In this document: piece after piece, positions 1 to 49,546 of the stretch
Numbering within the stretch: the first letter of the stretch is position 1
Layout: each line of letters opens with the position of its first letter
From: an uncultured Pseudobdellovibrionaceae bacterium
GTDB lineage: Bacteria > Bdellovibrionota > Bdellovibrionia > Bdellovibrionales > UBA1609
Length of the DNA: 64,000 bases
Assembly: GCA_964628445.1 (NCBI GenBank)
Contig: CAZVOP010000006.1
Span: forward strand, 6,723-70,722
Direction of reading: 5' to 3'
Program-made: the position numbers and the translations under genes
Notes under the pieces: generated by a model
Seen by the model: only the letters and a program-made list of their open reading frames with translations
What the model was told of the DNA's origin: nothing
Databases searched by the model: none

Positions 1-1
1 T

Positions 2-1462: not shown

Positions 1463-1489
1463 TTCTGCTAGATATCTGAATGAAGCCTG

Positions 1490-2238: not shown

Positions 2239-2312
2239 CTTTGAGCCAGTCCAAAGTCTGTTATCGCCTGCCTATAAAACGTTCAATTTCGATAACTTAG
2301 GCAGAAGTTGCG

Positions 2313-2443: not shown

Positions 2444-2452
2444 GAGCTTTAA

Positions 2453-3598: not shown

Positions 3599-3734
3599 TA
3601 ATTACGGCGTACGCGCTTTGAGTATCCGATCACTAATCTAAAGTTAAGTGAACGCCAGAATCTGCCTCTCACGGATAGCCGATTTCAGGCCCTTAGCGCC
3701 TTCCATTTCCAGAGGGTTTAGTAACCGAATGGCA

Positions 3735-4655
3735 TTAGGCGCCCGACTGGCTTTGGGCTCTCATCGATTCGAGCTCCACTCGGCCCTTGTCACCAAATGC
3801 CTTTGGATGGGTGTGAGCGTTGTCTATAAAATAACTTTTTAACAACGGTTCAAGTCCGGAAGCCGTACAGATCTCTAAATGTGAGAACTTAAAGAACTCT
3901 TGGTCACCGCGGAACCCCGATTTAGTCACGCGATCTATAAAATAAGACGTGTGACTTACTCTACGTGCTGCGCCCAACTGCTGCCCTTGATCATCATAGT
4001 CCACTACCCAAAGGTTATTGTCAGAAACAATAAGTACCGGGAGGATCGCAATGTACGAATTCTGTTCATCTCGCTTTTGATCTGCCGCTTGTTCAACCAT
4101 TTCGAAAGCCGAGGAAATGGCTTGTGACATTTTTCCGAAAACCTCAGCGTCTGACCCCACCGATCTCCCATTTTTATTTTCGACTTGATCCATTGATTTT
4201 CCAACAAAGTCGGCCGTCGTATATAAACCATCACCGTCTAACATTCGGAATACCCAACCATCGGCCCTCAAATGCCGTGCTCGATCCTCCGCGGTCTGTA
4301 GTGCGACCTGCACTGTGGTTGTCTTACGAGGCAAGTGAGGAACATAGACAAGATCTTGATACGCTTCCGAGTGCCACCGCTTAAGTCGATGAATTACTAA
4401 CGGCGACAAGGCGCTAATATTTTTGCACTCTACCGCTAAATATCCGCGTTTATTACCATGGAACCACTTTGCCCTAAGATCATATTCACGAGTCTTTTTT
4501 GTTACCTCGTCAACGTAAGTCCCACCCTGCTCAACGTGAAAACCCAAACCTGTTAGGCGTTTTTTAATTTGCACCTCGAAGGAGAAATCCGAATCTGTGG
4601 CCAGGTATGAGGCTATGTCCGCTTCGGTGACTTCGGTTGGAGGGTTCTTAGTCAT
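3735..4655 (-). CDS. PD-(D/E)xK nuclease-fold protein, otherwise uncharacterised
   Basis: 306-aa ORF. TREYDLRAKW ... GYLAVECKN gives the D-x(n)-E-x-K arrangement of restriction-endonuclease-like folds. The remaining ~200 aa contain no motif I recognise. Confidence 0.5.
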   Translation of the reverse strand: MTKNPPTEVTEADIASYLATDSDFSFEVQIKKRLTGLGFHVEQGGTYVDEVTKKTREYDLRAKWFHGNKRGYLAVECKNISALSPLVIHRLKRWHSEAYQDLVYVPHLPRKTTTVQVALQTAEDRARHLRADGWVFRMLDGDGLYTTADFVGKSMDQVENKNGRSVGSDAEVFGKMSQAISSAFEMVEQAADQKRDEQNSYIAILPVLIVSDNNLWVVDYDDQGQQLGAARRVSHTSYFIDRVTKSGFRGDQEFFKFSHLEICTASGLEPLLKSYFIDNAHTHPKAFGDKGRVELESMRAQSQSGA

Positions 4656-4757
4656 TCATTAAACCATCTTCTGATGACACTCCGCCTACTGCTGGAGATT
4701 CTTTATTGTGGGTTGGGATTCATAATCACAACTTTCCCCAATGATTCCGAACAGTGA

Positions 4758-4775
4758 TGGCGGAGAGGGGGGGAT
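4758..4775. repeat. attL: 18-bp direct repeat of the tRNA-Ser 3' end
   Basis: TGGCGGAGAGGGGGGGAT is identical to 17897-17914. It is intergenic. Confidence 0.75.
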
Positions 4776-4939
4776 GGTCGATCACCCCTTCTAAGCAGTT
4801 GTTAGTATTCACGTTACAGTAATTTCAATAACTTGCCATGTTTCAAGTTCGGCCACTGTCGGTTCCTGACGGTCAATTCGGGTCGACTCGTTCCAAAACT
4901 GGCATAATCATCATTAAGAAGTGCTTTAAAGGATGTACG

Positions 4940-5284
4940 ATGAACAAGTTGATTGAAGAATTGAGCAATCCCCCTTTTCTTGACCTAAATATTCTTCCAA
5001 TAATTATCGTGTTTTTGGGCGCCATACTTGGTCCCTTTTATCCGGGCGTCTACGCATCGACCATTTACGCCTCAGCAATCGTTGGTGCCGTCGTTTTATG
5101 GGAAAAAAAGCAAAAATCTGATGCATACACAAAGCTGTCGAGACTCCACGCAAAAATAGAACTTGGAGAGAAAATTGATATTGAGAAATATCTGAGCAGT
5201 GTCATTGGAGATCGGGATTTTCGATTAATTGGCAAAGAAAACTATGCGGCAATTGTAAGCTATATTTCTTCGAGGCAGAAGTAG
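4940..5284 (+). CDS. small two-TM membrane protein
   Basis: The ORF track gives 4838-5284. The internal ATG at 4940 has AAAGGA 8 nt upstream. Predicted TM segments are ILPIIIVFLGAILGPF and IYASAIVGAVVLW, followed by a charged tail. No family recognised. Confidence 0.5.
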   Translation: MNKLIEELSNPPFLDLNILPIIIVFLGAILGPFYPGVYASTIYASAIVGAVVLWEKKQKSDAYTKLSRLHAKIELGEKIDIEKYLSSVIGDRDFRLIGKENYAAIVSYISSRQK

Positions 5285-5393
5285 AGACGATGTGGACAAA
5301 CCAATTGAGAAGGAAACCATTGATCGTTATCCCCAAGAAAGCTCTTACTAGTGGTCCCAATTCAGTCCCGCCAAGGGATATCGGTGGTGTGCG

Positions 5394-6131
5394 ATGGCGA
5401 CAGGTTACTTTGAGCTAGAAAAATACAGAGCTATGCGAAGGCAAGAGCTGACAGACATGCTCAAGCCGTTTGTTCAAGCAACCGACGCATATGGAGTACT
5501 CATCTGTCGGGTGACCTCAATGCTTGGAGAACATGAGCCATGGTCCACGCAGGATAGAGTCATTCGCGATCTGATGGCTGACGCATTTGATTTCCTCTAC
5601 CAGGCACGAGATCACGTATTGTCTGGATATCTGAACACTGCTTATCCGCTCGCAAGGAGAGCTTACGAAACGATATCTCTAATTGGTGTCAGCATTCAGG
5701 ATGCCTTGGTTGCTGAGAAATGGAATAATTTCGCCAAAGTTGGAAATGCCGAGGTGAGGCGACGCTTAGAAAAGCTGCCATATCGAGAAGACGCTAAGAT
5801 TTTGGCCGAACTTTATGATTTTTATTGTCTGGGCACTCATCCCAATCGGGATTTGATTCCCAATAGACGATTAGGAGAAGGTAATAAATTTGTCCTCGGT
5901 GCTATCGGAATGCCGAATCTAGTACTCACTGTTGATTACTGTATGAAGCTTACCGATTTATGGTTTTGGTTTGGCGCCAATATTTCGATGTTTTACAAAG
6001 CTCAAGCCCAAGAAATGTACCCCGATCATATTGAGAGTTATCGAAAGGTTGCGAAGGATCTCGAAGACTGTAAGGTTTGGTTATCTAAGCAATATAAGAA
6101 CGCCTTAAGAGAGCAAGAGGGGCGCGACTAA
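5394..6131 (+). CDS. hypothetical all-alpha protein
   Basis: 245-aa ORF with a GGTGGTG purine-rich stretch upstream. No catalytic motif recognised. There is only a vague, unverified resemblance to helical Abi-type (DUF5677/AbiV-like) proteins. Confidence 0.5.
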   Translation: MATGYFELEKYRAMRRQELTDMLKPFVQATDAYGVLICRVTSMLGEHEPWSTQDRVIRDLMADAFDFLYQARDHVLSGYLNTAYPLARRAYETISLIGVSIQDALVAEKWNNFAKVGNAEVRRRLEKLPYREDAKILAELYDFYCLGTHPNRDLIPNRRLGEGNKFVLGAIGMPNLVLTVDYCMKLTDLWFWFGANISMFYKAQAQEMYPDHIESYRKVAKDLEDCKVWLSKQYKNALREQEGRD

Positions 6132-6357
6132 AATAATCTACCGTGCCTAGTGTAATATCCAATCCTAGTTCGAATTATTTTATTTAGTGGTACTAAATAA
6201 ATTCTAACGGTAGCAGGGGCCGCCACCCGTAGATCTTCACAAGGGCCGCCGTCAGACATAGCTAGGATTAACACCTAGTTCAAAAACGATAGATGCATTC
6301 CACGATCGACGAGTTGATTTCTGACGGGAGGTCAGCGACTACTCGTAATTTATTATC

Positions 6358-6870
6358 TCAAGCAAAGCCGATCGCCCCGAGGCGAATAGACATTGCCACG
6401 GAGGATACTTCAAACGACATTGCAAGCTGCTGAATTTCGAATTCTTCTAATTGATCCAACACTCCCATTTTGTCTAATTCAAGCTGTATCAATTTTTCCG
6501 GCATAAGAAGTTCTCCTGCAAAAAAATTTGCTTCGATTTCCTTCTTGTATTGAGTCGTTGCGGAATTTTTATCTCGAAAATGAACGATCGGCGTCACATC
6601 AACATTCAATCGTTTTTCTGGATGGAGCATTATATGTCCAAGTTCATGCGCTAACGTAAAGCGCTTGCGACTCTCGGAAAGACGCTTATCTATTAAAATA
6701 GCCTTGGAAGAACCTTTTATGACAGCGGCTCCTGAAATTGCCGCAAGATCTATTTCTACAATCTCAACATTCATTCGCTCTACAATGTCGACAATATTAA
6801 CTGGCACAGTTACTTCATCATCTAACAGTGCGCTTACAATATTTTTTATGTGCTTATACCGTACTGACAT
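6358..6870 (-). CDS. ImmA/IrrE family metallopeptidase
   Basis: RFTLAHELGHIMLH (HExxH) followed by EIEANFFAGELLMP is the signature of ImmA/IrrE (M78-type) peptidases. It overlaps the upstream XRE gene by 17 nt. Confidence 0.85.
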   Translation of the reverse strand: MSVRYKHIKNIVSALLDDEVTVPVNIVDIVERMNVEIVEIDLAAISGAAVIKGSSKAILIDKRLSESRKRFTLAHELGHIMLHPEKRLNVDVTPIVHFRDKNSATTQYKKEIEANFFAGELLMPEKLIQLELDKMGVLDQLEEFEIQQLAMSFEVSSVAMSIRLGAIGFA

Positions 6871-7198
6871 TAAATATTTCCAGCCGCCTTAAATCTTGCT
6901 GAATGTCATGGCCGTGCTCATCTAGTTCGCATTCGAGCATAACCTGATCATATAGATTCTGTATCTTTGCTATTGGAAGCTTAAGACGAAAACAAAACTC
7001 TAGAGCGTGCCTTAGCGTGACACTTTGATGCCCCCCTTCGATATTTGCGATCGAAACTCTGCTTAGGCTGACCATTTGAGCCAACTCTTGCTGACTCAAG
7101 CCATGGGCTTCCCGCAGCTTTCTTATTAAACTTCCAAAGGCTCTATTAAAGTCCTGCATGATTGATCCTGTATAATTGCTTTCCGAGATATCGGTCAA
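6854..7198 (-). CDS. XRE-family HTH repressor (ImmR-like)
   Basis: LIRKLREAHGLSQQELAQMVSLSRVSIANIEGG is a typical HTH_3 motif. It sits directly upstream of, and overlaps, the ImmA-like gene. Confidence 0.85.
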   Translation of the reverse strand: MTDISESNYTGSIMQDFNRAFGSLIRKLREAHGLSQQELAQMVSLSRVSIANIEGGHQSVTLRHALEFCFRLKLPIAKIQNLYDQVMLECELDEHGHDIQQDLRRLEIFNVSTV

Positions 7199-7326
7199 TA
7201 TGCTTGCATACTAGTAAGTAAAGTTTGCTTGCCATATGTCGTGGTCTTGCCTCAGTTCCACTTTAGAATACTTATAATATCCCTATAATTACAAGTATTT
7301 ATATTTAATGCTCATTTTGATATTTA

Positions 7327-7374
7327 CATTTTGCAAAATGCAAACCGCATTTTGCATTTTGCAAAATGCAAAAT
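7327..7374. promoter_or_regulatory. palindromic operator array (ATTTTGC/GCAAAAT heptamers)
   Basis: Perfect 14-bp palindrome CATTTTGCAAAATG (7327-7340) and perfect 26-bp palindrome ATTTTGCATTTTGCAAAATGCAAAAT (7349-7374), giving six full heptamer copies in 48 nt. The array lies between divergent regulator genes. Two TATAAT hexamers sit at 7273-7278 and 7284-7289 just upstream. Confidence 0.6.
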
Positions 7375-7393
7375 TAATGCTACTCTTCCTGAC

Positions 7394-7924
7394 ATGAGAG
7401 AGCAAAAAAGTTTGAAGCCTCAGGATATACTAGTTTTACTCTGGCTACTGCTGCGCCCACAAAAGGAAGAGTCGCTTCGCCATCTAGATATCGCTTATTC
7501 CCTTAAAATTAGCCCTTCGGAGGCGGGTCTTGCTATCAATCGACTTATGAAGTCGCGCTTAATTACGCAAGAAAAGATACCGATCAAAGCGGCAGCCTTG
7601 GAGTTCTTAATTCACGGATTAAAATATGTTTTCCCAGTAGAGCCAGGACCAGTAACTAGGGGGGTACCGACAGCTCACTCTGCTCGCCCCTTATCAAACA
7701 AACTGATTGCGACCAACGACTCCGAAAGCTATGTGTGGCCCGACCCTCAGGGAAAGGCTCGAGGACAAGCCATTATGCCTCTTTATAAGACTGTTCCATA
7801 TGCTGCTAAAAATGATGAAAAACTTCATGAATTTTTAGCATTAATCGATGCCATGAGAGTAGGAAGAGCAAGAGAAGTAAATTTCGCAGTAGAAGAACTG
7901 AAGCGAAGAATAAAAGAGGCTTAA
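7394..7924 (+). CDS. winged-helix DNA-binding protein, AbiEi-like antitoxin candidate
   Basis: N-terminal QDILVLLWLL...LDIAYSLKISPSEAGLAINRLMKSRLI looks like a MarR-type wHTH. The conserved LEFLIHGLKYVFP ... LALIDAMRVG blocks recur in partners of nucleotidyltransferases. The start is uncertain: ATG 7394 has no clear SD, and the alternatives are TTG 7331 or TTG 7412. Confidence 0.5.
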   Translation: MREQKSLKPQDILVLLWLLLRPQKEESLRHLDIAYSLKISPSEAGLAINRLMKSRLITQEKIPIKAAALEFLIHGLKYVFPVEPGPVTRGVPTAHSARPLSNKLIATNDSESYVWPDPQGKARGQAIMPLYKTVPYAAKNDEKLHEFLALIDAMRVGRAREVNFAVEELKRRIKEA

Positions 7925-7925
7925 T

Positions 7926-8615
7926 TTGAAGGACGACAATATTAATATTCTTCGGTTAGCGGTTCATGAATTGGGGCCCCTAGCGAACAACGTGGTCTTT
8001 GTGGGCGGCGCAACCGTTGGACTATATATTACTGACTCTGCTGTACCGAACGTTAGAGCGACAGTTGATGTCGATTGTGTCGTTGAGGTAACAAGCCAAT
8101 CTGGTTACCATGATATCGAAGAGCAACTTCGGGCCCGTGGTTTTTCCCACGATACTCAAGGCCCAATATGTCGTTTTCTCAAGGGCCCACTAATATTAGA
8201 TGTAATGCCAACCTCTGGGTCGATTTTGGGGTTTACAAATCAGTGGTACCCCGAAGGAGTTGCTAACTCAATGAGTGTGGCTCTCTCCCCCGGGCAAGAG
8301 ATCGCTGTTTTCACAAGCCCGTATTTTCTTGCCTCGAAACTCGAAGCTTTTAAAGGGCGGGGCGAAGACGACTTTCGAGCAAGTCATGACCTGGAAGATA
8401 TAATTGCTGTACTAGATGGAAACGAAGGAATTGCCAACCATATTGGTGCCGCCCCTAAAACCGTCCAAGCGTATCTCAAGCAAGAGTTTCAAAAACTCCT
8501 GGGAAACTCCGATTTCTTAGAGGCTATGGAAGGACATATTGCAGACCGACAAAATTCTGGCTCCAGAGTTCGCATAGTGATTTCTAGGATGGCCGAAGTA
8601 TTACGCTTGCCTTGA
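7926..8615 (+). CDS. nucleotidyltransferase, AbiEii/AbiGii-like toxin candidate
   Basis: FVGGATVGLYITDSAVPNVRATVDVDCVV fits the minimal NTase motif GG-x(n)-R-x-T-x-D-x-D. ASKLEAFKGRGEDDFRASHDLEDIIAVL resembles the AbiEii C-terminal block. TTG start with AGAGG 6 nt upstream, 1 nt after the stop of the wHTH gene. Confidence 0.5.
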   Translation: MKDDNINILRLAVHELGPLANNVVFVGGATVGLYITDSAVPNVRATVDVDCVVEVTSQSGYHDIEEQLRARGFSHDTQGPICRFLKGPLILDVMPTSGSILGFTNQWYPEGVANSMSVALSPGQEIAVFTSPYFLASKLEAFKGRGEDDFRASHDLEDIIAVLDGNEGIANHIGAAPKTVQAYLKQEFQKLLGNSDFLEAMEGHIADRQNSGSRVRIVISRMAEVLRLP

Positions 8616-8707
8616 AACGTAAAACTCAAGAGCTGCACACCGAAACCCTCGACCACCATGGGAATAGTTTCTAGTCTAACCTGGATGGAAACAATAATTC
8701 TAGATTT

Positions 8708-8797
8708 ACTCGTTCCAAATTTCGTTTCAATTTAATCATCATGATGAGTCTCTTCCAAAGATCCCGTGCTTTCCCGAAAGTTGGCGGAAATACCGAA
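8708..8797 (+). repeat. bipartite direct repeat, copy A (3' flank of the OLD gene)
   Basis: Block 1 at 8712-8732 and block 2 at 8772-8797 are collinear with 11465-11485 and 11522-11549. See findings. Confidence 0.55.
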
Positions 8798-8939
8798 AAA
8801 ATTCAGCCGATTTCAGAATTGCTATAATGTAATTTAATCGATATCCACAAGCAGACGAATATCTGGAAACCCGCACCTTACCCATTCCGACATCAGGGCC
8901 CTTCTTACCACCTCAATTTCACAGCGATTTACAAGTCCG

Positions 8940-10862
8940 CTAAGCAAAAATCTTATTGATCTCCAAAAACATTTTCTCAAAATTGTCCATAGTCAGACCG
9001 GAAAGATCTCCCTTCCTAAGCCCAACTTGATTCAATTTGTTCGCTGGCCGATAATGATTGAATCTTTCCTTCGATATTACCTTATTAATTTGCTTCACAA
9101 TGGTCGGGAGAGAGGGATCTAGCGTGGAAACATCTACCGGGGGAATCTCCCCTTGAAACGAATCATTGAAGATCTTTAGATAATCATCTTTAGAAAACAA
9201 ATCCTCAATATCTGCAACGGCTTTTCCATTATTAGCGAACTCGTCAAAAAACCTAATATTTTTATCTTTAATGATTTTCATTCGAACAAGATCGTCAACC
9301 CTCTGCTTACCAGACTGGTCTGTATACGTGTCCAGAAGGCACGCCACATTTAACTTGGAGCCTCGCAAAAGCGAGATGAATGTCGATACCTTATCAAGTC
9401 CACCTACTGGTACAATTGTAATGTTGTCTTTCAGAAAGGATCTTCCCTCAATCTCAAGCAGATTGGAAATTGCAGTTAAATAAATAAGGTCGGCCGGACC
9501 TTCAACCAGAAGATTATTTTTCGAAATAAATAAATTCTGCGCAATATCATAACCTAACGCAGCCTGGAGAGGGAAAAGCGTGTTGGGATCTTTCTCTTGG
9601 ATCGTTTCAGAGATAATAGTACCAGCCTCCGTCTCAAGGCAGGTCCTAACACTCGCGAGGCGATCAGACTCAACCATGAATGGCGAATGCGTAGTAAAAA
9701 TGATTTGATATTTTCCCGAGAGGTCTCGGAAGAATTGTAACAGGTCTGCCTGGGCAGAAGCATGAAGATTTAACCCCGGCTCATCAAGTAATAATATATA
9801 TCCCGAATTTTTATCCGCCTGAATTTTACTAAACCATACAATAAACGAAAAGAACCAATTGAACCCCTTGCTGCGGCGATCTAACGGTAGGGTAATTTTA
9901 TGACGACGACTTTTGACCCTAATATCAAGGTATTTTTCTCTAGCCCCCTGATCATTAGTTATGTCCTGAATCTTGAATTCAATATCTAGATTTTTATTTG
10001 TTGACCAATATTTAAATATTTCATTGGTAATCTTGTTTGCCGATGCCTCCAATAGAGCCACATACTTTTCATAATCCTTTTCAACAGCATTCAGAATATC
10101 CGCCGGCCTAATTTTGGCTAACTCAAACAAGGCTCTTGAAGTTTTGTCTCTTTCTGACTTTGGTTCCCCCTGCATTTTGTTTATATTTATTTTTCCGGGA
10201 AGCGGGTAATAGTCGTCAAAATACCAAAATTTTGGAATGTTCGGAACGATCCACTTACTTACAATATATGCCTCAAGTGCATTTTCCCAATTTGGATTGC
10301 CGGCCTGAATTATTTGAGCGATCTCTTTCTTTAATCCCGGGAGGCCCTCGTCGCCCTCCATAGCTTCAACCTGCGATATTTCCTTTATATCTACGATTTT
10401 TGAAATCTTTTTTTTCGTCTCTTTTGAAAGCGTATAGTCTTTTAATTTGAACTCGATAAATTTGCCAACATTAGCCGCAATCCCACTTATGGACTGGGTT
10501 TTATTTTTATAATAATGCGTCCGACTGAACTCCCGGGTAATCAGAACTCCCTCACCTACGTCCTGATCAATCAATTTAGTAAGCTTTGGGGCGATCGCAT
10601 AGTGGCAATTAATTATGTCGCAGTCATCTTCAGCATCTTGAAAATCTATGAGTTCGTTCCTGGGATAGTCCGAAACCATATCGAATTTAAAATCGACGTC
10701 ATTGGAATTAAAATAGTTGGTTTTTGCGATTGCGGTAAGGAACGAGGTTTTTCCAGATTCATTCATTCCAACGATAGTTGTTATCGCTGGGTCAATATTT
10801 ATCTGTTGGGGCTTTTGAATGCTTTTGTACTTGGTTACTTTAACCTTTGTCAGGGTCATCAT
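8940..10862 (-). CDS. OLD-family ATP-dependent endonuclease (ABC-type ATPase + TOPRIM), stand-alone
   Basis: N-terminus MMTLTKVKVTKYKSI...IVGMNESGKTSFL (Walker A), LLLDEPGLNLHASAQ (Walker B/D-loop) and FTTHSPFM (H-loop). The C-terminal part has LLVEGPADLIYL and acidic LLDTYTD (TOPRIM). Start moved from 11054 to ATG 10862, which has AGGA ~10 nt upstream and gives the canonical OLD N-terminus. Confidence 0.8.
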   Translation of the reverse strand: MMTLTKVKVTKYKSIQKPQQINIDPAITTIVGMNESGKTSFLTAIAKTNYFNSNDVDFKFDMVSDYPRNELIDFQDAEDDCDIINCHYAIAPKLTKLIDQDVGEGVLITREFSRTHYYKNKTQSISGIAANVGKFIEFKLKDYTLSKETKKKISKIVDIKEISQVEAMEGDEGLPGLKKEIAQIIQAGNPNWENALEAYIVSKWIVPNIPKFWYFDDYYPLPGKININKMQGEPKSERDKTSRALFELAKIRPADILNAVEKDYEKYVALLEASANKITNEIFKYWSTNKNLDIEFKIQDITNDQGAREKYLDIRVKSRRHKITLPLDRRSKGFNWFFSFIVWFSKIQADKNSGYILLLDEPGLNLHASAQADLLQFFRDLSGKYQIIFTTHSPFMVESDRLASVRTCLETEAGTIISETIQEKDPNTLFPLQAALGYDIAQNLFISKNNLLVEGPADLIYLTAISNLLEIEGRSFLKDNITIVPVGGLDKVSTFISLLRGSKLNVACLLDTYTDQSGKQRVDDLVRMKIIKDKNIRFFDEFANNGKAVADIEDLFSKDDYLKIFNDSFQGEIPPVDVSTLDPSLPTIVKQINKVISKERFNHYRPANKLNQVGLRKGDLSGLTMDNFEKMFLEINKIFA

Positions 10863-11217
10863 AGATAAAATCCTGTTTATAGTCTTATTGTTGTTTGATG
10901 TGTTATTGTTGCCTAGGTGGCGTGAATTTCCAATCCCATATGTGTAAGCGCGGCTGAGGTCGGGCGCGGCGTGGGCCACCTGAAGTTCAGAAAAATCGCG
11001 ATCCACCTGGCGCCAAAGGACCTTTGAACCAAGACGGTGCGGGCTGTCGAGCATACAACAGCAGCTACTGCCAATACGCGTACACTTCCTTGGTCCAGAT
11101 GTAATCTCAGGATGAAACAGAACGACTCTAGACTTTAGGTCTCTTAGCCGTGGAAATAATTTTTATGGATCGATTTGCAGCGTCTAGTCCAAACACAATT
11201 TTTTTCGGAGGGGATAA

Positions 11218-11301
11218 ATGTCCAGCGATGTAGTTTGCATAATTGCCGGCCTGGCACTTTCTTTGGCGGGCTCATTGGTTACGGTTGGGTTGCCCCAATA
11301 A
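11218..11301 (+). CDS. candidate 27-aa hydrophobic peptide (type I toxin-like small ORF)
   Basis: GGAGGGG (11207-11213) lies 4 nt before the ATG. It translates to MSSDVVCIIAGLALSLAGSLVTVGLPQ, a single TM-length hydrophobic core. A perfect 7-bp hairpin GCCTCCA-GATT-TGGAGGC at 11317-11334 follows the stop. The ORF is too short for statistical support. Confidence 0.3.
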   Translation: MSSDVVCIIAGLALSLAGSLVTVGLPQ

Positions 11302-11460
11302 GGGTTCTGTTAGTAGGCGCCTCCAGATTTGGAGGCTGCCCCCCGATAAAATTGAATATTACGATAGAAAAATTCGGAAAGATGCGACTATTGCCCGCAT
11401 CCTCTAAGTGCTGGGAGGTTTTTTGCAAATATACGGAAGCCTGCAGTTTAAAATAGTTCC

Positions 11461-11549
11461 CCTTGTTCCAAATTTTGCTTCAATTATTTAGCCCCCATAA
11501 AATATCCGTGTTTTCGTATACTCCCGTCGATATTGGCGGAAACACCGAA
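11461..11549 (+). repeat. bipartite direct repeat, copy B (far upstream of the OLD gene, upstream of XRE gene 11712)
   Basis: Collinear with 8708-8797. GTTCCAAATTTYGYTTCAATT matches 19/21, and TCCCG-N4-6-TTGGCGGAAAYACCGAA also matches. Confidence 0.55.
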
Positions 11550-11711
11550 TCTTCGCCAAACAATTAAAGTTTGCATTCCATATCTGCACCGATAAAGGTC
11601 TTGCCTGAATCACAAAACGGGTAGCCGTGCCACAGGCACAGTCAATCGTTCGTTACAACGGCTAACGGGAAAGCAGTTCCAAGTTCAATCTTATATGTCG
11701 ATCATGAACCT

Positions 11712-12005
11712 ATGAAACTAAATGTCGGGAATGTTTTAACGGAGATCTTTCGCGAACGGCGTTTGACCATAAAGGAAGTTGCCAAAGCCAGCGGCGTTCC
11801 TGCGTCTACTCTCAGCGAATGGAAACTTAACCGTGCCCCAAAGAACCCTGAACAAGCATTGAAGGTCGCCGAGGCCCTCGACATATCCCTACACTTTCTG
11901 CTATTCGGTGTCGAGGACCGGCAAGAGCCTCTACAAAAGCTGCTCAAAGAAGACGTATTTAGCGGCACTTTCGAAATCAACATTAAACGAATCAAGATAA
12001 AATAG
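11712..12005 (+). CDS. XRE-family HTH regulator (Cro/CI-like)
   Basis: LTEIFRERRLTIKEVAKASGVPASTLSEWKLNR is an HTH_3-type motif. 97 aa. Confidence 0.8.
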   Translation: MKLNVGNVLTEIFRERRLTIKEVAKASGVPASTLSEWKLNRAPKNPEQALKVAEALDISLHFLLFGVEDRQEPLQKLLKEDVFSGTFEINIKRIKIK

Positions 12006-12015
12006 GAGAACAGCA

Positions 12016-12648
12016 ATGCAACTTCGGTTAGAAAATCGATCTCTAAGCTTGGTACGCGCATCAGCTATATTCTGCGCATTGAGCCTCACTGCCTGTGCTT
12101 CCATGGGAGCGTACAATGCACGTACATATGCGCAAATCAGACATAAGCGCACCTACGAGCCCGTAAATGCCAAGGAGTTCAAAGTCGAGGACTCAAATTT
12201 GATCGCTGAGTACACACCGGACATTTTGGACGCCGGCACAAGCTTTCAATTCACCAACAAAACCAACAAGGTCATTAAGATCATTTGGGATGAAACAGCC
12301 TACCTTGCTCCAAGCGGTCAGTCCGAAAGGATCTTTCATGCTGGCGTTAAACTAATAGATCGTGGTCAATCTCAGCCACCCACAGTCATTCCACCTCGGG
12401 GCCATCTCTTGGATGACTTAATTCCTATTGCGAATGTTGAGCCTGGATCCGGCCAGTTTGCAGCTTGGAGATACAACACCATGTGTGGAACGCAAAGCCT
12501 ACCGACAAGAGAGCTTCAAGATGCCGAATGCATTGGAAAAATATTCGGATATTTTCTGACCTACGAGATTGATGGGAAGAAAAAGAATATGACAGCTCAA
12601 TTTAGATTTGTTTCGAAGGAGCCTCTCCCAAAAGAAAGCGCAAAGTAG
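12016..12648 (+). CDS. lipoprotein, unknown function
   Basis: Signal peptide with lipobox LSLTAC. Starts 10 nt after the XRE gene stop. No family recognised. Confidence 0.55.
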   Translation: MQLRLENRSLSLVRASAIFCALSLTACASMGAYNARTYAQIRHKRTYEPVNAKEFKVEDSNLIAEYTPDILDAGTSFQFTNKTNKVIKIIWDETAYLAPSGQSERIFHAGVKLIDRGQSQPPTVIPPRGHLLDDLIPIANVEPGSGQFAAWRYNTMCGTQSLPTRELQDAECIGKIFGYFLTYEIDGKKKNMTAQFRFVSKEPLPKESAK

Positions 12649-12680
12649 CAAGCTCGACAGATCTGCCCGCAGTCTTCAAA

Positions 12681-13142
12681 TTAAGTTGCGGGTGATTCGG
12701 AGTTATCTTTCGATGATTGTTTTTCTAAATAGCGCAGGTGTGATTGATTGATTACTTGTAGCCTTTTTCTTTCTTCCAAAAGCTCTTCAATTGACCATTC
12801 TTCATATCGGAGCGGAGCTGGCTCCTCCATTACGTTGCCGGCTTTACCAATGGCCCGATCCAAGAGCCTCTCGAATGCACAAGCATTACCCGTTTCTAAA
12901 ATATGCAAAATAATCTTTATTAGGCATAGTTCAATCGCCGCCAAATCTTTAAGTTGGGACTTGGCACGTAGCTCTTCTTCAGTAAGAAAAAAATTCTGAC
13001 TGATATACCGTGAGAGCATTTCCTTACTCAACTCACGGACCACTCGCTCCTCACTGGTGTACGAAGCTCCGCCCTTAGGCCTTCCACCTCGCCTGCCGAT
13101 CTGATTGCCAGCTCTAAAACTCGTTCGATTTTTTTTGCCCAT
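12681..13142 (-). CDS. hypothetical protein with N-terminal GNQxGxxGGRPKG motif (DUF5681 / small-terminase-like?)
   Basis: Start set at MGKKNRTSFRAGNQIGRRGGRPKG (ATG 13142). The basic N-terminal motif resembles phage DUF5681/TerS-like DNA-binding N-termini. The assignment is weak. Confidence 0.4.
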   Translation of the reverse strand: MGKKNRTSFRAGNQIGRRGGRPKGGASYTSEERVVRELSKEMLSRYISQNFFLTEEELRAKSQLKDLAAIELCLIKIILHILETGNACAFERLLDRAIGKAGNVMEEPAPLRYEEWSIEELLEERKRLQVINQSHLRYLEKQSSKDNSESPAT

Positions 13143-13242
13143 ATATAGGCATTCTGCCGGTTCGCTGCGCGGCATGTCAATCGCGCGCTCATCTTATATA
13201 TCCCACTGGCTGAATGAAGAAATTCACAGGAGCGAAGTCCAA

Positions 13243-13920
13243 ATGAAACCCTCTCAAAACACAACCACGCAGGCATGGCTGCCCGCTGAAGCCCAAGCGT
13301 TTTATTCATCGAAGACCTTCAAGGAAGCCCCTTCCCAGTTCTCCTGGATACAATCCCAACATATGAAAAGGGTCTGGCAATGCTTCGACCGTTTACCAAA
13401 GAATCGACGGAAGGAAATCACCAAGTTCATCGAATTGCTTCCGATTATTCTCAAACATTCGCAAGAACGAAAGGCTAAGAAACAAATAAATGACTGGCTT
13501 GGTGAAATTACGAGCGCCGCCGCCAAAATAAAGAGAAACATGGACTTGCTTCAAGAATTTGATGGCTTCTCTTTCGAATTGCCTTCGCATGAGGCCGTAC
13601 TCGAAATTGAGCAGGCGACTGAGTTGCGGTCGAGACAGCTAAACGACGATTTAATTGACCTTTATCTAGGTAAAGAGTTCGCACGCGTTGGCTTTTTTAA
13701 AAAAAAGACGTCAAAAGATGCGGTTGAAATCTATCTAATAAAAACTCTTATCAAATTATTTAAAAAATATTTTAATAAACCTAACTATTTGTTGGCCGGA
13801 ATAACCGCGTTGGTGCTTACAAATAACAATAAATATGTAGATGGTGCTGGAAATTTGGAGATTGATCTCATCAGAGATCGTGCGACAAAACTCGCAAAAA
13901 TAGGGAACATTCCTCTCTAA
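13243..13920 (+). CDS. hypothetical protein
   Basis: The ORF track gives 13105-13920, but its first 46 codons overlap the divergent gene. ATG 13243 has AGGAG 11 nt upstream. No motif recognised. Confidence 0.4.
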   Translation: MKPSQNTTTQAWLPAEAQAFYSSKTFKEAPSQFSWIQSQHMKRVWQCFDRLPKNRRKEITKFIELLPIILKHSQERKAKKQINDWLGEITSAAAKIKRNMDLLQEFDGFSFELPSHEAVLEIEQATELRSRQLNDDLIDLYLGKEFARVGFFKKKTSKDAVEIYLIKTLIKLFKKYFNKPNYLLAGITALVLTNNNKYVDGAGNLEIDLIRDRATKLAKIGNIPL

Positions 13921-13996
13921 ATTTAGCAGAATCGTCTCTACTCCCTTTAAGCCCCTTCGAATAAGTTCGCTCCTTTAAAACAAAGGAGTCAGAATC

Positions 13997-16213
13997 ATGA
14001 AATCGGAAAATAATTCGGATCAGTTACAGGAAGCATTGAGACTACACAAATTAGGATTCGGAATTCACTGGCTAAGGCCTCACTCCAAAATACCTGTGAA
14101 AAGTGGTTGGACAAATGGGGGGCGACTATCGCCAAGTTCTCTCAAAAATGAATTTAGAACAGGAATGAATATCGGGGTTCGCCTAGGCAAAGCTTCGAAA
14201 CTGCGATCCGGAGGGTTCCTTGCAATAATCGATTGCGATGTAAAATCCTCGGCGCCCAAGCACCTTCAGGAGATGACCGCTAAGCTGAACGAACTATTTC
14301 CAGACTATAAGAAAGCGCCCTGCGTGAAATCTGGCCGAGGCAACGGATCGGCCCACTACTATTTGCAAACATCTGAGCCAACGGCACCATACAGAGCTTC
14401 TCAAAGTTCTGAGAAAGTCCCAGTTCACATGCCCGGAATTTCTCCATCAGCAAATGACAAGGTTTCGCTCAGCAAAAAGCAAATTGAAAAAGGTCTGCGC
14501 CTAAGAGCTGCGTGGGAAATTTCGGTTATGGGAGAAGGCCAACAGGTCGTATTGCCCCCCTCCATTCATCCTGATACCGGAATTACTTATCAATGGGTTC
14601 GCCCCCTGAAAGATGACGCTGAAATTCCAACACTCGGCCTCAAAGGCTCTTCGAAAAAAATTGAGAAAGCCACGATCGACGACTTCGAATTTGAAACTAT
14701 CGACCTGAAGAAATCAACTCTCCCACTAGAACTGATCGACGGCATCATCGACGGCGATGGCGTTGAAGATCGATCCGCGTTTCTCTTCAAAGTCGCCATT
14801 GCCATGTTTCGGGAGGGATGGGGTGATAAACAAATTTTGTCAGTTTTGACTGACAAAAATCTCTATATTGGAAAAACCGCTTTTGATCACTGCAAAACTC
14901 AATCGCGCAAAAAAGCCGCACAGTGGATAAGCGACTACACTCTATCCAAAGTGAAAATCGAACACTCGGCAGCTAATGCATTTGACGACCTGGCCGTAGT
15001 CGATGGGAAAGATAGCGATTGGAAACGATCTCTTGATCGCAACAGGTATGAGCGTCCTCACCCGAGTTTCAAAAATATCAAACTGATTTTAGGAAAAACT
15101 GTTAATGAACCTCTTCTCGCTAGAAACGAATTTTCTATGGAGGACATCTGGCTTACCGATACTCCCTGGAACACCAAAGCCGGCATGCCTATTACCGATT
15201 GCGACTCCATTCAAATAAAAGATTGGCTTGCTCATAAGTGGAGGATAGAGCCAAACAAGGATAAGATCGAAGAAGTTCTTCAACAATTTGCAATGGAGAA
15301 CTCATTTCACCCAGTACGGAAATACCTAAAAGCTCTAGAGTGGGACAAAACCAAAAGAATAAATTCTTGGCTAAAAACATATCTCAAAGCAAATGGTCCT
15401 GAACGTTACTTGCAAGCTGTCGGTCAAAAACTTCTATGTGCGATGGTGAAAAGAATCTTCGTGCCCGGATGTAAGTTTGATCAGGTTGTAATTTTAGAGG
15501 GGCTCCAAGGAGTCGGCAAAAGCACCACGGTAAGAATTTTGGCTGACCCTTGGTTTTCTGATTCTCATTTAAATATTGGCGACAAAGATGCCGTGATGAA
15601 TATGCAGGGCATTTGGGTTTACGAACTGGGGGAGCTTTCTGCAATGAGACGAGCCGAAACCAACACCTTAAAAGAGTTCATTACTCGCTCAACGGATCGC
15701 ATCCGACCGCCCTATGGCAAAAGGACAATATCGTTCCCAAGACAATCTGTTTTTATTGGAACGACGAACTCTAAAGAGTATTTGAAAGACCCCTCGGGAA
15801 ATCGACGCTTTTGGCCAGTTGAGGTCGGAAGGATTGACCTGAAGGCACTGCAGAAGGATCGCGATCAATTGTTGGCCGAAGCCGTGGTTTATTCAAAAAT
15901 GGAATCTCTTTGGATTGAAGATGAGTCGATTCAAGAGCTTGAACGTCATGAACAATATTTACGAGTAGAGCACGATGAGCTGAAAGATCTCATACAAGAA
16001 TTTTTGGAAGATTCGAACAATCTCTTTCCCAAACAATTTAAAATTTCAGATCTTCTCGAACGCGTGCCATTCACTTCTATGCGACACGATATTGGATTAG
16101 AAAGACGAATCCATGCATCTCTTAGAGCCCTAGGTTATGACAACCGGGAAAAGTGGGATAAGGCCTTGTGCCGTAACGTCCGACGGTGGCGAAAGCTGAA
16201 ACCTTTAAGGTAG
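13997..16213 (+). CDS. bifunctional primase-polymerase (Prim-Pol) / VirE-type P-loop replication protein
   Basis: The N-terminal part has LGFGIHWLRPHSKIPVKSGW and AIIDCDVKS (Prim-Pol domain with DxD). The C-terminal part has VVILEGLQGVGKST (Walker A) ... FITRSTDRIRPPYGKRTISFPRQSVFIGTTN ... GNRRFWPV, typical of the VirE/D5-like family. Confidence 0.85.
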   Translation: MKSENNSDQLQEALRLHKLGFGIHWLRPHSKIPVKSGWTNGGRLSPSSLKNEFRTGMNIGVRLGKASKLRSGGFLAIIDCDVKSSAPKHLQEMTAKLNELFPDYKKAPCVKSGRGNGSAHYYLQTSEPTAPYRASQSSEKVPVHMPGISPSANDKVSLSKKQIEKGLRLRAAWEISVMGEGQQVVLPPSIHPDTGITYQWVRPLKDDAEIPTLGLKGSSKKIEKATIDDFEFETIDLKKSTLPLELIDGIIDGDGVEDRSAFLFKVAIAMFREGWGDKQILSVLTDKNLYIGKTAFDHCKTQSRKKAAQWISDYTLSKVKIEHSAANAFDDLAVVDGKDSDWKRSLDRNRYERPHPSFKNIKLILGKTVNEPLLARNEFSMEDIWLTDTPWNTKAGMPITDCDSIQIKDWLAHKWRIEPNKDKIEEVLQQFAMENSFHPVRKYLKALEWDKTKRINSWLKTYLKANGPERYLQAVGQKLLCAMVKRIFVPGCKFDQVVILEGLQGVGKSTTVRILADPWFSDSHLNIGDKDAVMNMQGIWVYELGELSAMRRAETNTLKEFITRSTDRIRPPYGKRTISFPRQSVFIGTTNSKEYLKDPSGNRRFWPVEVGRIDLKALQKDRDQLLAEAVVYSKMESLWIEDESIQELERHEQYLRVEHDELKDLIQEFLEDSNNLFPKQFKISDLLERVPFTSMRHDIGLERRIHASLRALGYDNREKWDKALCRNVRRWRKLKPLR

Positions 16214-16356
16214 AGCCTCACACCGAACTGCAAATTTCTCTAAAATGATTACAAATAACAGGTTAACAGGGTGGCCACCACGCAGCCAAAGTGTCTGGAA
16301 GACAAGCTGTGCGGTGTGCGCTTTCCTTTATTGAACCGTAAATAGGGATCAAGTAC

Positions 16357-16647
16357 ATGGAAGACAAACTATCGGCGTCCAATACTGAACTTGGATTGAT
16401 TGAACGACATAGACTCCATATCAGTCAGCAGTCAGAAATACGTACCAAGTCCGATGGATCTGATAAAGATTGGTTCTTTGAAAATCGAGTGGCTCTTTCG
16501 GTCTCAGAAGCAGCTTTCGCACTAGGTGTATCTGTTCGCACTGTCGAACGAATGATTCGACGAAATGAACTTAGAATCCGCCGCCTAGGCAAACGCATTC
16601 TGATTCCGAAAGAAGAACTTGGAGCATGGCTCAGCCGAAAGGAATGA
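16357..16647 (+). CDS. excisionase/AlpA-type HTH DNA-binding protein
   Basis: LSVSEAAFALGVSVRTVERMIRRNELRIRRLGKRILIPKEEL matches the excisionase-family HTH pattern. It sits immediately upstream of the integrase. Confidence 0.7.
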   Translation: MEDKLSASNTELGLIERHRLHISQQSEIRTKSDGSDKDWFFENRVALSVSEAAFALGVSVRTVERMIRRNELRIRRLGKRILIPKEELGAWLSRKE

Positions 16648-16650
16648 GCT

Positions 16651-17862
16651 ATGTCCAAAATTGATAGAGCAGTGCCCAAACATCCACAGATTTATCGCGT
16701 TCATGATGTCGATAGTCTGGGAAAGATGAGCCCCACAAGCACGTATCGAGTTCGAAAGCGCGTAAAGGTTAACGGCAAGTGGAGTACAAAGGTGACAACC
16801 TTTAGCAGCTTCGAAGACGCCAAACATTTTGCGCGGCAAAAGTTCGACATCAACGTCATGGGTGCAATCCAAATGCGCTTTAGTGAAGTCCTCAGCAAGT
16901 TTTTGCACCATAAAGAATTTGAAGAGCTGCGCGCTCCGGGTACGATTCACGGTTATCGATCAAGAGCTAAGCATTTTAAATTCTTCGATGACCTTTCCAT
17001 GCGCGATATCACACCTCAAGTGATCGACGGATGGGCGAATCTCATGCTTGATCCGCAGTACAAGGCACTTCAACAAAGCTCCAGAGCGGACTACGACCAT
17101 GAACTGACTTTGCTTTCCGCGATCCTGAGATATCATCGCGAGTATTGGGATGAAACTTACGTCGTCCCAATTATGAGACGACACCGAAAGCGGCTTTGCC
17201 CTCATCGAAAATGTAAGGACGAGATTCGCTACCTCTCCGGTGAGCAAGAACTTCTTTTTCTTGAAGCGCTGAAGCCTTGGCCAGTTGTCCACGATATCGC
17301 CTTATTCCAGCTCCATACCGGGGCTCGCATCGGTGAAGCCGCCGCGATGGATTTTGGCGCGGTCGAATTTGTGAAACATCAGGTTCATATTCGACAACAT
17401 CTTCACTGGGACCGAGTTAAGAAGGGGCAAATATCGATCTTAAAGGGCACCAAGGCCGGACCGGATCGAACCGTGCCTCTAACGTCGGAATGTCTTGATA
17501 TGCTTCGCCATCGCTACCAGACACGCTCTGGATCGGTTGTATTCGCCGACCCCAAACGCGTTACTGGGTGGATGCACTACAGGAGTATTCAAGCCATCTA
17601 TGATCGAGCTTTTGAGAGGCTTGGCTTTTCTCACCGTGGAACCCACACCCTTAGACACACTTTCGCCGTTCGCTTTCTCGAACAAACGAAGGACGTCTAT
17701 GCACTTCAGCGGGCGCTTGGACATACGGATCTGGAAATGACGATGAGATATGCGAAGTACTCCAACGATTCCGTGCGAAAAGCGTTTCAAATTTTTCGCG
17801 GTGGAAGAGAAAACGCCAAAGGTGACGTTCCAAATTTGTTACATGGAACAAGCACCCAATGA
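16651..17862 (+). CDS. int: tyrosine recombinase / phage-type integrase
   Basis: The C-terminal catalytic blocks are TGARIGEA, HTLRHTFAVRFL and LGHTDLEMTMRYAKY (R..HxxR..H..Y). It ends 35 nt from the tRNA-Ser 3' end. Confidence 0.9.
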   Translation: MSKIDRAVPKHPQIYRVHDVDSLGKMSPTSTYRVRKRVKVNGKWSTKVTTFSSFEDAKHFARQKFDINVMGAIQMRFSEVLSKFLHHKEFEELRAPGTIHGYRSRAKHFKFFDDLSMRDITPQVIDGWANLMLDPQYKALQQSSRADYDHELTLLSAILRYHREYWDETYVVPIMRRHRKRLCPHRKCKDEIRYLSGEQELLFLEALKPWPVVHDIALFQLHTGARIGEAAAMDFGAVEFVKHQVHIRQHLHWDRVKKGQISILKGTKAGPDRTVPLTSECLDMLRHRYQTRSGSVVFADPKRVTGWMHYRSIQAIYDRAFERLGFSHRGTHTLRHTFAVRFLEQTKDVYALQRALGHTDLEMTMRYAKYSNDSVRKAFQIFRGGRENAKGDVPNLLHGTSTQ

Positions 17863-17896
17863 GTTTTCTAAGTGATTTCAACAGGTCCCAAAGAAC

Positions 17897-17914
17897 TGGC
17901 GGAGAGGGGGGGAT
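17897..17914. repeat. attR: 18-bp repeat within the tRNA-Ser 3' end
   Basis: Identical to 4758-4775. Confidence 0.75.
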
Positions 17915-17989
17915 TTGAACCCCCGGTACAGGTTTACCCTGTACGACAGTTTAGCAAACTGCTGGTTTAAGCCACTCACCCACCTCTCC
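17897..17989 (-). tRNA. tRNA-Ser(GCU): tRNA-Ser (anticodon GCU)
   Basis: The reverse complement folds as acceptor GGAGAGG/CCTCTCC, anticodon stem-loop GCAGT-TTGCTAA-ACTGT, long variable arm, T-arm GGGGG-TTCAAAT-CCCCC, with encoded CCA. Confidence 0.9.
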
Positions 17990-18124: not shown

Positions 18125-18201
18125 GCGCTCGTAGCTCAGCTGGATAGAGTACTTGACTACGAATCAAGTGGTCGGAGGTTCAAATCCTTCCGGGCGCGCC
18201 A
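18125..18201 (+). tRNA. tRNA-Arg(ACG): tRNA-Arg (anticodon ACG)
   Basis: GCGCTCG acceptor, TAGCTCAGCTGGATAGAGT D-arm, anticodon loop CTACGAA, T-arm GGAGGTTCAAATCCTTC, CGGGCGC-G-CCA. Confidence 0.9.
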
Positions 18202-20044: not shown

Positions 20045-20120
20045 TCAGGCGTAGCTCAGTTGGTAGAGCAAGCGGCTGTTAACCGCTTTGTCGGGGGTTC
20101 GAGTCCCTCCGCCTGAGCCA
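20045..20120 (+). tRNA. tRNA-Asn(GUU): tRNA-Asn (anticodon GUU)
   Basis: TCAGGCG acceptor, TAGCTCAGTTGGTAGAGC D-arm, anticodon loop CTGTTAA, T-arm GGGGGTTCGAGTCCCTC, CGCCTGA-G-CCA. Confidence 0.9.
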
Positions 20121-49536: not shown

Positions 49537-49546
49537 TGATTGTCCT

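Follow-up and report, generated by a model that had tools for sequence, protein, structure and literature searches.

A 64,000-nucleotide stretch of contig CAZVOP010000006.1 (assembly GCA_964628445.1), which comes from an uncultured Pseudobdellovibrionaceae bacterium of the order Bdellovibrionales and is called the window here, contains a 13.2-kb segment at positions 4758-17914 that lies between two perfect 18-bp direct repeats, the second of them within a tRNA-Ser(GCU) gene. We conclude that this segment is very probably an intact site-specific integrative element with a defence cargo, and that it was, almost certainly, inserted into the 3' end of the tRNA gene by an integrase. Since the repeats are perfect, the recombinase and excisionase genes intact and the attachment (att) arms in agreement with the family consensus, the element appears to be recent and, on balance, is probably still excisable. 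The conserved arms on both sides, together with the siting of related elements at tRNA-Ser genes, argue for an intact integrative element that is a member of a small Bdellovibrionales family.

Results

Insertion into the 3' end of tRNA-Ser(GCU)

There are exactly two copies of the 18-mer TGGCGGAGAGGGGGGGAT in the 64-kb window, one at 4758-4775 and one at 17897-17914, and no others at up to 2 mismatches; 100 shuffles returned 0 matches. The right-hand copy runs from the CCA, which the gene itself encodes, through the discriminator base and the acceptor strand into the first bases of the tRNA's T-stem. A sequence-only reading of this DNA had described both repeats and had recognised the second as the 3' end of an intact minus-strand tRNA-Ser, which the repeat search, ARAGORN and Rfam bear out. 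It had also placed a tyrosine integrase 35 nt from the tRNA, preceded by an excisionase-type helix-turn-helix (HTH) gene and a PrimPol/VirE gene; the integrase (int) does adjoin the tRNA, with 34 nt between its stop codon and the gene, and the two genes ahead of it are recognised through their HTH_17/TIGR01764 and Prim-Pol plus VapE/DUF5906 matches. The parts of the recombination module are as follows.

4758..4775, unstranded: attL core, duplicating the 18 bp at the tRNA-Ser 3' end; identical to 17897-17914, 0 matches expected by chance
4818..4897, plus strand: P' arm block, with the inverted repeat AACTTG-N8-CAAGTT (4830-4849) and a CGTTCC arm-type motif (4888-4894); conserved across 4 elements
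16357..16647, plus strand: excisionase/AlpA-type HTH_17 protein (HTH_17 1.3e-12; TIGR01764 excisionase family 2.1e-14)
16651..17862, plus strand: tyrosine integrase, 403 aa (Phage_integrase 1.4e-21)
17826..17896, plus strand: P arm, with the tandem CGTTCCA-N5-GTTACA (17826-17843, within the int 3' end) and the box TTTTCTAAGTGATTTCAA (17864-17881); from the alignment of 8 relatives
17897..17989, minus strand: intact tRNA-Ser(GCU) (ARAGORN; Rfam tRNA 57.3 bits), its 3' 18 nt (17897-17914) being the attR core

All six residues of the integrase catalytic set (R226, K268, H332, R335, H358 and Y367) are present and are invariant in 26 homologs, and an HTH_17 gene lies directly upstream of int in every relative examined. 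Two other tRNA genes follow to the right, tRNA-Arg(ACG) at 18125-18201 and tRNA-Asn at 20045-20120 (ARAGORN, both confirmed with Rfam), and an Rfam scan of the window found nothing credible besides these three tRNAs. Its plus-strand match to 'Plastid-psbl-rps4' at 17900-17954 falls short of the family's gathering score (52 against 68 bits), lies within the tRNA-Ser gene but antisense to it, and was taken as spurious.

Related elements share the arms and the choice of target

The integrase has 32 homologs, mostly metagenomic, the nearest named one coming from a Bdellovibrionales bin, and genomic context could be recovered for nine (designated by L numbers). In eight metagenomic relatives, with integrases 46-68% identical to that of the window, int stops 33-42 nt from the 3' end of a tRNA-Ser gene, which is tRNA-Ser(GCU) in L017, L018, L020, L102 and L103, tRNA-Ser(UGA) in L001 and L003, and tRNA-Ser(CGA) in L019; L101, whose integrase is 43% identical, sits at tRNA-Pro(TGG). 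Complete relatives with tRNA-derived repeats of their own are L017 (6,348 bp, 19-nt repeat), L103 (7,218 bp, 16 nt) and L003 (about 10.9 kb). Apart from one 1.3-kb fragment, a scan of metagenome contigs with the integrase alignment brought up hardly anything but distant recombinases (24-36% identity).

The P' block, about 80 nt long and present once in the window, is conserved in all four elements with a visible attL (window, L003, L017 and L103), amid surrounding DNA that cannot be aligned, and in each it begins exactly 72 nt past the start of the core. On the other side, a tandem CGTTCCA-N4-5-(C)GTTCCA in the last codons of int is found in 8/8 aligned relatives, most of which also have a box like TTTTCTAAGTGATTTCAA before the core. 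Both arm regions of the window agree with the family consensus at every invariant position. From this pattern we infer that the CGTTCCA repeats are putative arm-type integrase sites, or possibly sites for the excisionase (Xis). Excision would be predicted to yield an attP junction reading ...TTTCAACAGGTCCCAAAGAAC-TGGCGGAGAGGGGGGGAT-GGTCGATCACCCCTTCTAAGC... and an attB junction reading ...CCAATGATTCCGAACAGTGA-TGGCGGAGAGGGGGGGAT-TTGAACCCCCGGTACAGG....

The Logan contig of L003, 10,925 bp long, starts at the first base of its att core (TGGCGGAGAGGGTGAGATT, 1-19) and ends after the TGGCGGA of the next core (10919-10925), so that the breaks in the assembly coincide exactly with the att sites; this would fit a sample in which several junction types were mixed, from integrated and excised forms or from several target tRNAs.

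The same locus in syntenic relatives

A scan with the tRNA-Ser(GCU) pattern, taking one genome per species, gave 13 loci, 8 of which belong to Bdellovibrionales or Pseudobdellovibrionaceae bins that share the tRNA-Ser/tRNA-Arg pair. Four of these eight and no others (L008, L009, L010 and L014) also have a homolog of the open reading frame (ORF) at 18989-19459 and the tRNA-Asn, which makes the right side syntenic. All eight loci lack both the genes of the 13-kb block and any integrase homolog, and the gene 3' of tRNA-Ser is different in each: a histidine phosphatase, a glutathione S-transferase, a GNAT-like ORF (judged by its sequence alone), unknowns, a Fic protein (L008) and part of a serine recombinase (L010). 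Since the block is absent and the left neighbour changes from relative to relative, the block is not conserved syntenic core, and the 3' side of tRNA-Ser is a variable hotspot. Conservation of the block as syntenic core was what the sequence-only reading had said would refute its interpretation. A scan of genome contigs with the neighbouring DUF4097 protein found no relative.

Two of these loci carry observations of their own. In L010 (JBFWQY010000013.1), the C-terminal part of a large serine recombinase (Recombinase plus zinc-ribbon, weak matches), within about 1.1 kb 3' of tRNA-Ser, reads into the 3' end of tRNA-Ser(GCU), so that another recombinase family seems to use the same site. In L008 (JAYQON010000002.1), a Fic-domain protein 45 nt from the tRNA-Ser 3' end is 25% identical to the SoFic protein of the window's left flank, with no integrase in 1.7 kb of sequence; it hints at a site that collects defence or toxin genes across the order.

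Composition of the island and of its left flank

The guanine-plus-cytosine (G+C) content is 43.9% in the island against 52.2% in the core at 17915-64000, the lowest 13-kb window of which has 51.4%, and the tetranucleotide distance between island and core is 0.305 where core windows of equal size reach at most 0.091. At the right repeat the G+C step is sharp, from 0.45 to 0.54. The left flank, 1-4757, is itself atypical: its G+C content is 46.6%, whereas core windows of that size never go below 50.0%, and its tetranucleotide distance of 0.281 exceeds the 0.164 that such windows reach at most. Its genes, all outside the repeats, are these.

494-1462, plus strand: TIR-like protein (TIR effector domain, PADLOC 8.7e-12)
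2453-3598, plus strand: SoFic (full length, PADLOC 3e-119)
3735-4655, minus strand: unknown 306-aa gene

None of them has a homolog in any syntenic relative, and a search for att copies within 1-4757 found none, nor is an integrase visible there. The flank resembles an older portion of a defence hotspot, devoid of an integrase and continuing beyond the edge of the window. As it too is foreign, what the repeats enclose is the youngest part, with the integrase, of a larger variable and defence-rich region and not the whole of it.

A conserved backbone carries the predicted replication and control genes

Comparison with L001, L003, L019 and L020 delimits a backbone at 11.5-17.9 kb, whose order is a cI-type HTH gene, an unknown 210-aa gene, a DUF5681-like gene on the opposite strand, an unknown gene, the primase-helicase gene, xis and int. 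The genes upstream of xis are listed here.

11712..12005, plus strand: cI/Cro-type HTH regulator, 97 aa, the first backbone gene (HTH_3 2.1e-9; Phage_CI_repr 1.2e-4)
12016..12648, plus strand: ORF of 210 aa, no family match (Pfam, PADLOC, PHROGs, NCBIfam)
12681..13175, minus strand: DUF5681-like small helical protein of phage affinity, 164 aa; homologs in L001, L003 and L019
13105..13920, plus strand: ORF upstream of the primase, 271 aa as listed (true start probably later); 35% identity over 79 aa to a 229-aa protein at the same position in L001
13997..16213, plus strand: PrimPol plus VapE/D5-type superfamily 3 (SF3) helicase, 738 aa, the predicted replicase (VapE-like_dom 3e-76; Prim-Pol 1.2e-17; DUF5906 8.1e-7)

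The HTH regulator is 60% identical to its counterpart in L001 and 32% to that in L020. Tblastn matches in relatives to a minus-strand ORF at 11702-12061 (119 aa) proved to be an antisense shadow of this plus-strand gene.

The primase-helicase matches a PHROG DNA helicase/primase family at 4.9e-105, is 51% identical to its L001 homolog and about 36% identical to phage primases (Rhodobacter phages). Among PDB chains it matches 7pds ('similar to D. nodosus vapE') at E 1.9e-45, which we take to be a SaPI-type replication helicase. Among the relatives the replicase is the most variable part of the backbone: PrimPol-VapE is found in the window and in L001, VapE alone in the contig of P0004, a D5_N type in L019, a DnaG-Toprim type in L101, PrimPol with AAA_25 in L102 and an AEP-like type in L020, with no recognisable replicase in L003, L017 and L103.

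The DUF5681-like protein has 77 homologs among protein representatives, and its homolog in L003 matches Pfam DUF5681 at 2.3e-9. An AF2 model built from the alignment reached a pLDDT of 84, against 50 for a single-sequence model. In Foldseek the best matches of the model were phage DUF5681 proteins (E 9e-4 to 2e-2), with small terminases at E ~1 only and no structural match in the PDB. A profile search of PDB sequences gave nothing significant, tblastn against phage genomes gave nothing, and a word-indexed homolog search returned the protein itself alone.

The identifiable cargo is of the defence type

The left part of the element, 4.8-11.5 kb, holds the cargo genes.

4940..5284, plus strand: ORF of 114 aa, from an ATG after an AAGGA ribosome-binding site; no family match (Pfam, PADLOC, PHROGs, NCBIfam)
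5394..6131, plus strand: ORF of 245 aa; no Pfam, PADLOC or NCBIfam match, one weak PHROGs match (E 0.001)
6358..6870, minus strand: M78/ImmA-type metallopeptidase, CapP-like (Peptidase_M78 2.8e-23; PADLOC capP 7.8e-29)
6854..7198, minus strand: XRE-type HTH regulator, CapH-like, co-oriented with the peptidase (HTH_31/HTH_3 ~2e-9; PADLOC capH 8.6e-8)
7326..7367, unstranded: two copies of the 14-bp palindrome CATTTTGCAAAATG, probable operators, read from the sequence
7331..7924, plus strand: PDC-M21A, candidate defence subunit A (true start may be the ATG at 7394; PADLOC PDC-M21A 1.1e-45)
7926..8615, plus strand: PDC-M21B, AbiEii-like nucleotidyltransferase (PADLOC PDC-M21B 5.4e-63; Pfam AbiEii 0.0019, under the curated cut-off)
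8940..11054, minus strand: stand-alone OLD-family ATPase/TOPRIM nuclease, 704 aa (AAA_15 4.7e-23; OLD-like_TOPRIM 4.2e-9; PADLOC Old 9.6e-29)

For the first ORF, a longer version starting at 4838 would overlap the non-coding arm block, and the upstream ATG is CTG in L003. The OLD gene, which the sequence-only reading had already named as such and which its three family matches support, has the lowest G+C of the island (40.4%); its product matches the OLD-family PDB chain 6p74 at E 1.3e-9 and, with neither a helicase nor a partner encoded next to it, is of the stand-alone type. The CapH/CapP-like pair is divergent from PDC-M21A/B, and between them lie a promoter-like TTTAGA-16-TATAAT site (7262-7289) and, downstream of it, the CATTTTGCAAAATG palindromes. 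Six island ORFs stay without annotation after Pfam, PHROGs, NCBIfam and PADLOC, and the identifiable cargo, OLD and PDC-M21 beside the CapH/CapP-like pair, agrees with the earlier description of it as mostly defence-type.

Defence cargo is carried by several members of the family: an Avs4 in L101, a Ppl-like ATPase and a RES/Xre pair in L001, and an Mrr-like enzyme in L019, with no defence genes identified in L003, L017 and L103. The Avs4-type STAND NTPase of L101 spans 866-5914 (1,682 aa, PADLOC 2.3e-171), and a DnaG/Toprim-type primase replaces PrimPol-VapE in that element.

Two internal sites resemble the P arm

On both sides of the OLD gene the element contains a site that resembles its own P arm followed by the start of the core.

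8709..8797, plus strand: i1, CTCGTTCCAAATTTCGTTTCAATT, about 46 nt, TTGGCGGAAATACCGAA; a copy of i2
11462..11549, plus strand: i2, upstream region of the core module, CTTGTTCCAAATTTTGCTTCAATT, about 46 nt, TTGGCGGAAACACCGAA

The two have CTYGTTCCAAATTTYGYTTCAATT and TTGGCGGAAAYACCGAA in common, and each looks like a P arm followed, on the same strand and at the same spacing of 76-77 nt, by the opening 7 nt of the att core. The pattern GTTCCA-N63-65-TGGCGGA, which was defined post hoc from the same data, occurs 3 times in the window against a shuffle expectation of 0.13, always on the plus strand and within the island; one occurrence is the true P arm and core, the other two are i1 and i2. Site i2 aligns with the regions upstream of the cI-like HTH genes in L001 and L020, the latter having TGATAGA instead of TGGCGGA.

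One could imagine i1 and i2 to be relic att junctions of three tandem elements. This was rejected on three grounds: the P' block is absent after either site, the second box departs from the 18-bp core after 7 nt and yet is common to both, and in L001 and L020 an i2-like region stands ahead of the cI-like HTH gene. Nor are they remnants of integrase genes, as only about 8 codons resemble the integrase tail. The best reading would be that i2 is the family's regulatory region ahead of the backbone, and that i1 is a copy made when the OLD segment was acquired there. From the likeness to the P arm one could further speculate that Int or Xis may bind at these sites too. A sequence in L017, TGGCGGAAAATCCGAGAA at 737-754, resembles the second box of i1 and i2; it lies 4 kb left of the L017 attL, beside a resolvase gene, and lacks the arm motif.

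Outside the element, a gene for a 577-aa YD-repeat protein at 47833-49566 coincides with a G+C dip to 46.3% (48001-49000) and a strong negative AT skew, and adjoins a Tad-type pilus/secretin cluster at 50-57 kb.

Discussion

Taken together, these results suggest the following course of events. The attP of a circular form would have matched the tRNA-Ser(GCU) 3' end over 18 bp, and recombination of this attP with the tRNA gene (attB) by the tyrosine integrase would have left the tRNA whole at attR and an 18-bp fragment of it at attL. The integrase would bind the core and the CGTTCCA arm-type repeats of the P arm, in its own 3' end, and of the P' arm, and together with the HTH_17 excisionase it would reverse the reaction, after which the PrimPol/SF3-helicase may replicate the excised circle. 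The right 6.4 kb would form the conserved backbone and the left 6.7 kb an exchangeable cargo that protects the host from phages, made up of the stand-alone OLD and the AbiE-like PDC-M21 pair beside a divergent, CapH/CapP-like HTH and M78 switch with two predicted palindromic operators. Within the larger variable defence region 3' of tRNA-Ser, the element would be the latest arrival.

Several observations weigh against this account, or against parts of it. There is no direct evidence of excision or of a circular form, the one hint of excision coming from a relative, in the core-to-core contig of L003. An exact empty site was not obtained, since the closest genomes are of other species and none has the window's left flank, so that the search for an empty tRNA-Ser site, as proposed by the sequence-only reading, yielded the syntenic locus lacking the block but not the precise junction. 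At attL there is no real G+C break and the left compositional boundary is thus invisible, because 1-4757 is itself atypical; the AT-richer bounded segment of that reading holds for the overall composition and for the right end, and fails at the left. Neither an origin of replication nor iterons could be convincingly identified around the primase gene, and the replicase varies or goes unrecognised among relatives, so that replication is no fixed property of the family. Self-replication after excision, which the sequence-only reading had proposed and for which the PrimPol plus SF3-helicase gene speaks, strikes us as an evenly balanced proposition. Finally, because HTH and M78 pairs recur in the 6.3-kb minimal element L017 and in L020, the pair may instead be the element's own damage-responsive induction switch of the ImmR/ImmA type. 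ImmR and ImmA control the element itself in ICEBs1.

As to how the element travels, hitch-hiking in phage particles appears the most plausible route, which we put forward tentatively. It could, in particular, be a minimal phage satellite of the PICMI or PICI-type-C kind, in which a helper phage would induce AlpA/Xis, excision and replication would follow, packaging would take place perhaps as a concatemer, and the defence genes would act against competing phages. The combination of int, an AlpA-type regulator (PF12728) and a primase (PF19263/DUF5906), mandatory in the PICMI model, fits such a life cycle, as do a length of 13 kb, which falls in the satellite size range, the lack of transfer genes of its own, a replicase homologous to 7pds and the DUF5681-like protein, structurally nearest to proteins of tailed phages; VEIME satellites likewise lack capsid genes. 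Still, the searches of Pfam, PHROGs, NCBIfam and PADLOC found no small terminase (terS), capsid-morphogenesis or other hijack gene in the element, the small-terminase matches of the DUF5681-like protein stay at E ~1, and the window shows no helper phage, nor is one known. Neither relatives of the integrase and primase nor the two att-arm patterns turned up among IMG/VR viral contigs, which thus give no positive sign of encapsidation. With 3 of the 5 PICI core components, moreover, the element is in a state that the SatelliteFinder authors themselves consider ambiguous (PMC10085698). We regard a satellite life as possible yet doubtful, and the probable helper dependence advanced by the sequence-only reading finds no support in packaging or capsid-hijack genes or in IMG/VR. 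The bolder version, in which the family would be minimal phage satellites of predatory Bdellovibrionota whose DUF5681-like protein redirects helper packaging, with i1 and i2 as Int/Xis-bound entry points for swaps of defence cassettes just upstream of the backbone, is a long shot.

The other explanations fare worse. The element might be a fixed, immobile island that integrated once and is retained only for its defence genes; it sits in an older foreign region without an integrase (1-4757), no excised form has been observed, and its proteins are found on a single contig in the protein collection. Decay would, however, be expected first in the repeats, the integrase with its catalytic residues, the excisionase and the consensus arms, all of which are intact, and this makes immobility unlikely. 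Mobilisation by a co-resident conjugative system through an unrecognised oriT would account for the missing transfer genes, could draw on several unannotated ORFs, and might in principle find an oriT-like hairpin in the P' arm inverted repeat at 4830-4849, although the fixed 72-nt spacing between inverted repeat and core better suits an att arm. As neither the element nor any relative has a relaxase, a coupling protein or a MOB family, and as the Tad-pilus-type secretion genes at 50-57 kb belong to the host, we find this route quite improbable. A degraded prophage is suggested by the phage affinities of the integrase, the excisionase, the cI-like repressor, the primase-helicase (36% to the Rhodobacter phage primases) and the DUF5681-like gene. 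There is, however, no structural or lysis gene, and the complete relatives, 6.3-10.9 kb long with both att sites, are equally compact and equally devoid of structural genes, which indicates that small size is native to the family and not the outcome of decay; we give this explanation hardly any weight. The absence of capsid, tail, relaxase and conjugation genes, correctly noted from the sequence at the outset, thus extends to terminases in the element (Pfam, PHROGs, NCBIfam, PADLOC) and, in the relatives, to capsid, terminase, tail, relaxase and secretion genes.

Set beside known systems, the integrative element with defence cargo is an ordinary, well-preserved tRNA-integrating island with a replication module, of a common kind that is tycheposon-, PICMI- or PICI-type-C-like. 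Tycheposons of Prochlorococcus are 10-20 kb long, lie in larger tRNA-adjacent islands that also hold older, integrase-less material, and include tRNA-Ser(TGA) among their labelled targets (bioRxiv 10.1101/2020.12.28.424599). The likeness to the cargo-carrying tycheposons is one of layout, drawn from comparison with the published description: a tyrosine recombinase at a tRNA that leaves a partial tRNA repeat, an excisionase, a PrimPol/VirE primase-helicase, and a modular backbone with cargo. The host, by contrast, is a member of the Bdellovibrionota here and cyanobacteria there, and the cargo serves defence here and nutrient acquisition there. PICMIs, found in the Vibrionaceae, are defined by co-located int, AlpA (PF05930/PF12728) and primase (DUF3987/DUF5906) genes, are about 6 kb long, lie next to fis, and have been experimentally induced and transduced by a virulent helper phage (PMC10803314). 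The element contains that triad (PF00589, PF12728 and, at 30.1 bits against a cut-off of 27.6, PF19263), lacks capsid-remodelling genes and is small, as they are, and PICMIs too protect their host against other phages; it differs in lying in tRNA-Ser(GCU) and not downstream of fis, in its 13 kb, and in that no helper phage or packaging is known for it. A PICI, in the SatelliteFinder definition, has at least 4 of 5 core components, namely integrase, regulator (alpA/merR/stl), primase-replicase, small terminase and capsid morphogenesis (PMC10085698). With the first three of these and neither of the last two, the element would be a 'Type C', a class excluded as ambiguous by the same authors. P4-like satellites share int, an AlpA-type regulator and a primase with it and also have defence hotspots, whereas psu, delta, sid and epsilon are missing from the element. 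It has, like its relatives, no relaxase, no coupling protein or type IV secretion and no recognisable oriT, as integrative and conjugative or integrative mobilisable elements would, and none of the virion structural, packaging and lysis genes of a prophage.

The cargo has close parallels of its own. In CapH/CapP-regulated immune operons an HTH repressor and an M78 peptidase are divergent from a defence operon, with palindromic operators between (bioRxiv 10.1101/2022.04.27.489752); the layout in the element is the same, with a PDC-M21 operon in place of CBASS, and the pair also occurs in L017 with no recognisable defence operon. The OLD protein resembles the class 1 stand-alone OLDs (P2 Old) in its N-terminal ABC-type ATPase, its C-terminal TOPRIM domain, the lack of a partner gene and its place on a mobile element. 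It differs in an N-terminal extension of about 65 residues and in its distance from 6p74, and its activity is a prediction.

Defence-carrying, tRNA-integrating islands with int, xis and primase genes are well documented in tycheposons, PICMIs and P4-like or PICI satellites, and the present element does not change the understanding of them. What it adds is a cleanly bounded, apparently intact mobile element in the Bdellovibrionales, a group known mostly from metagenome bins, whose mobile elements and phage defences are little described. A small family can now be defined by its integrase, its excisionase, its conserved att arms and its specificity for tRNA-Ser over three isoacceptors, and this definition can be used to find further members and further defence cargo, which so far comprises OLD, PDC-M21, Avs4 and Ppl-like systems.

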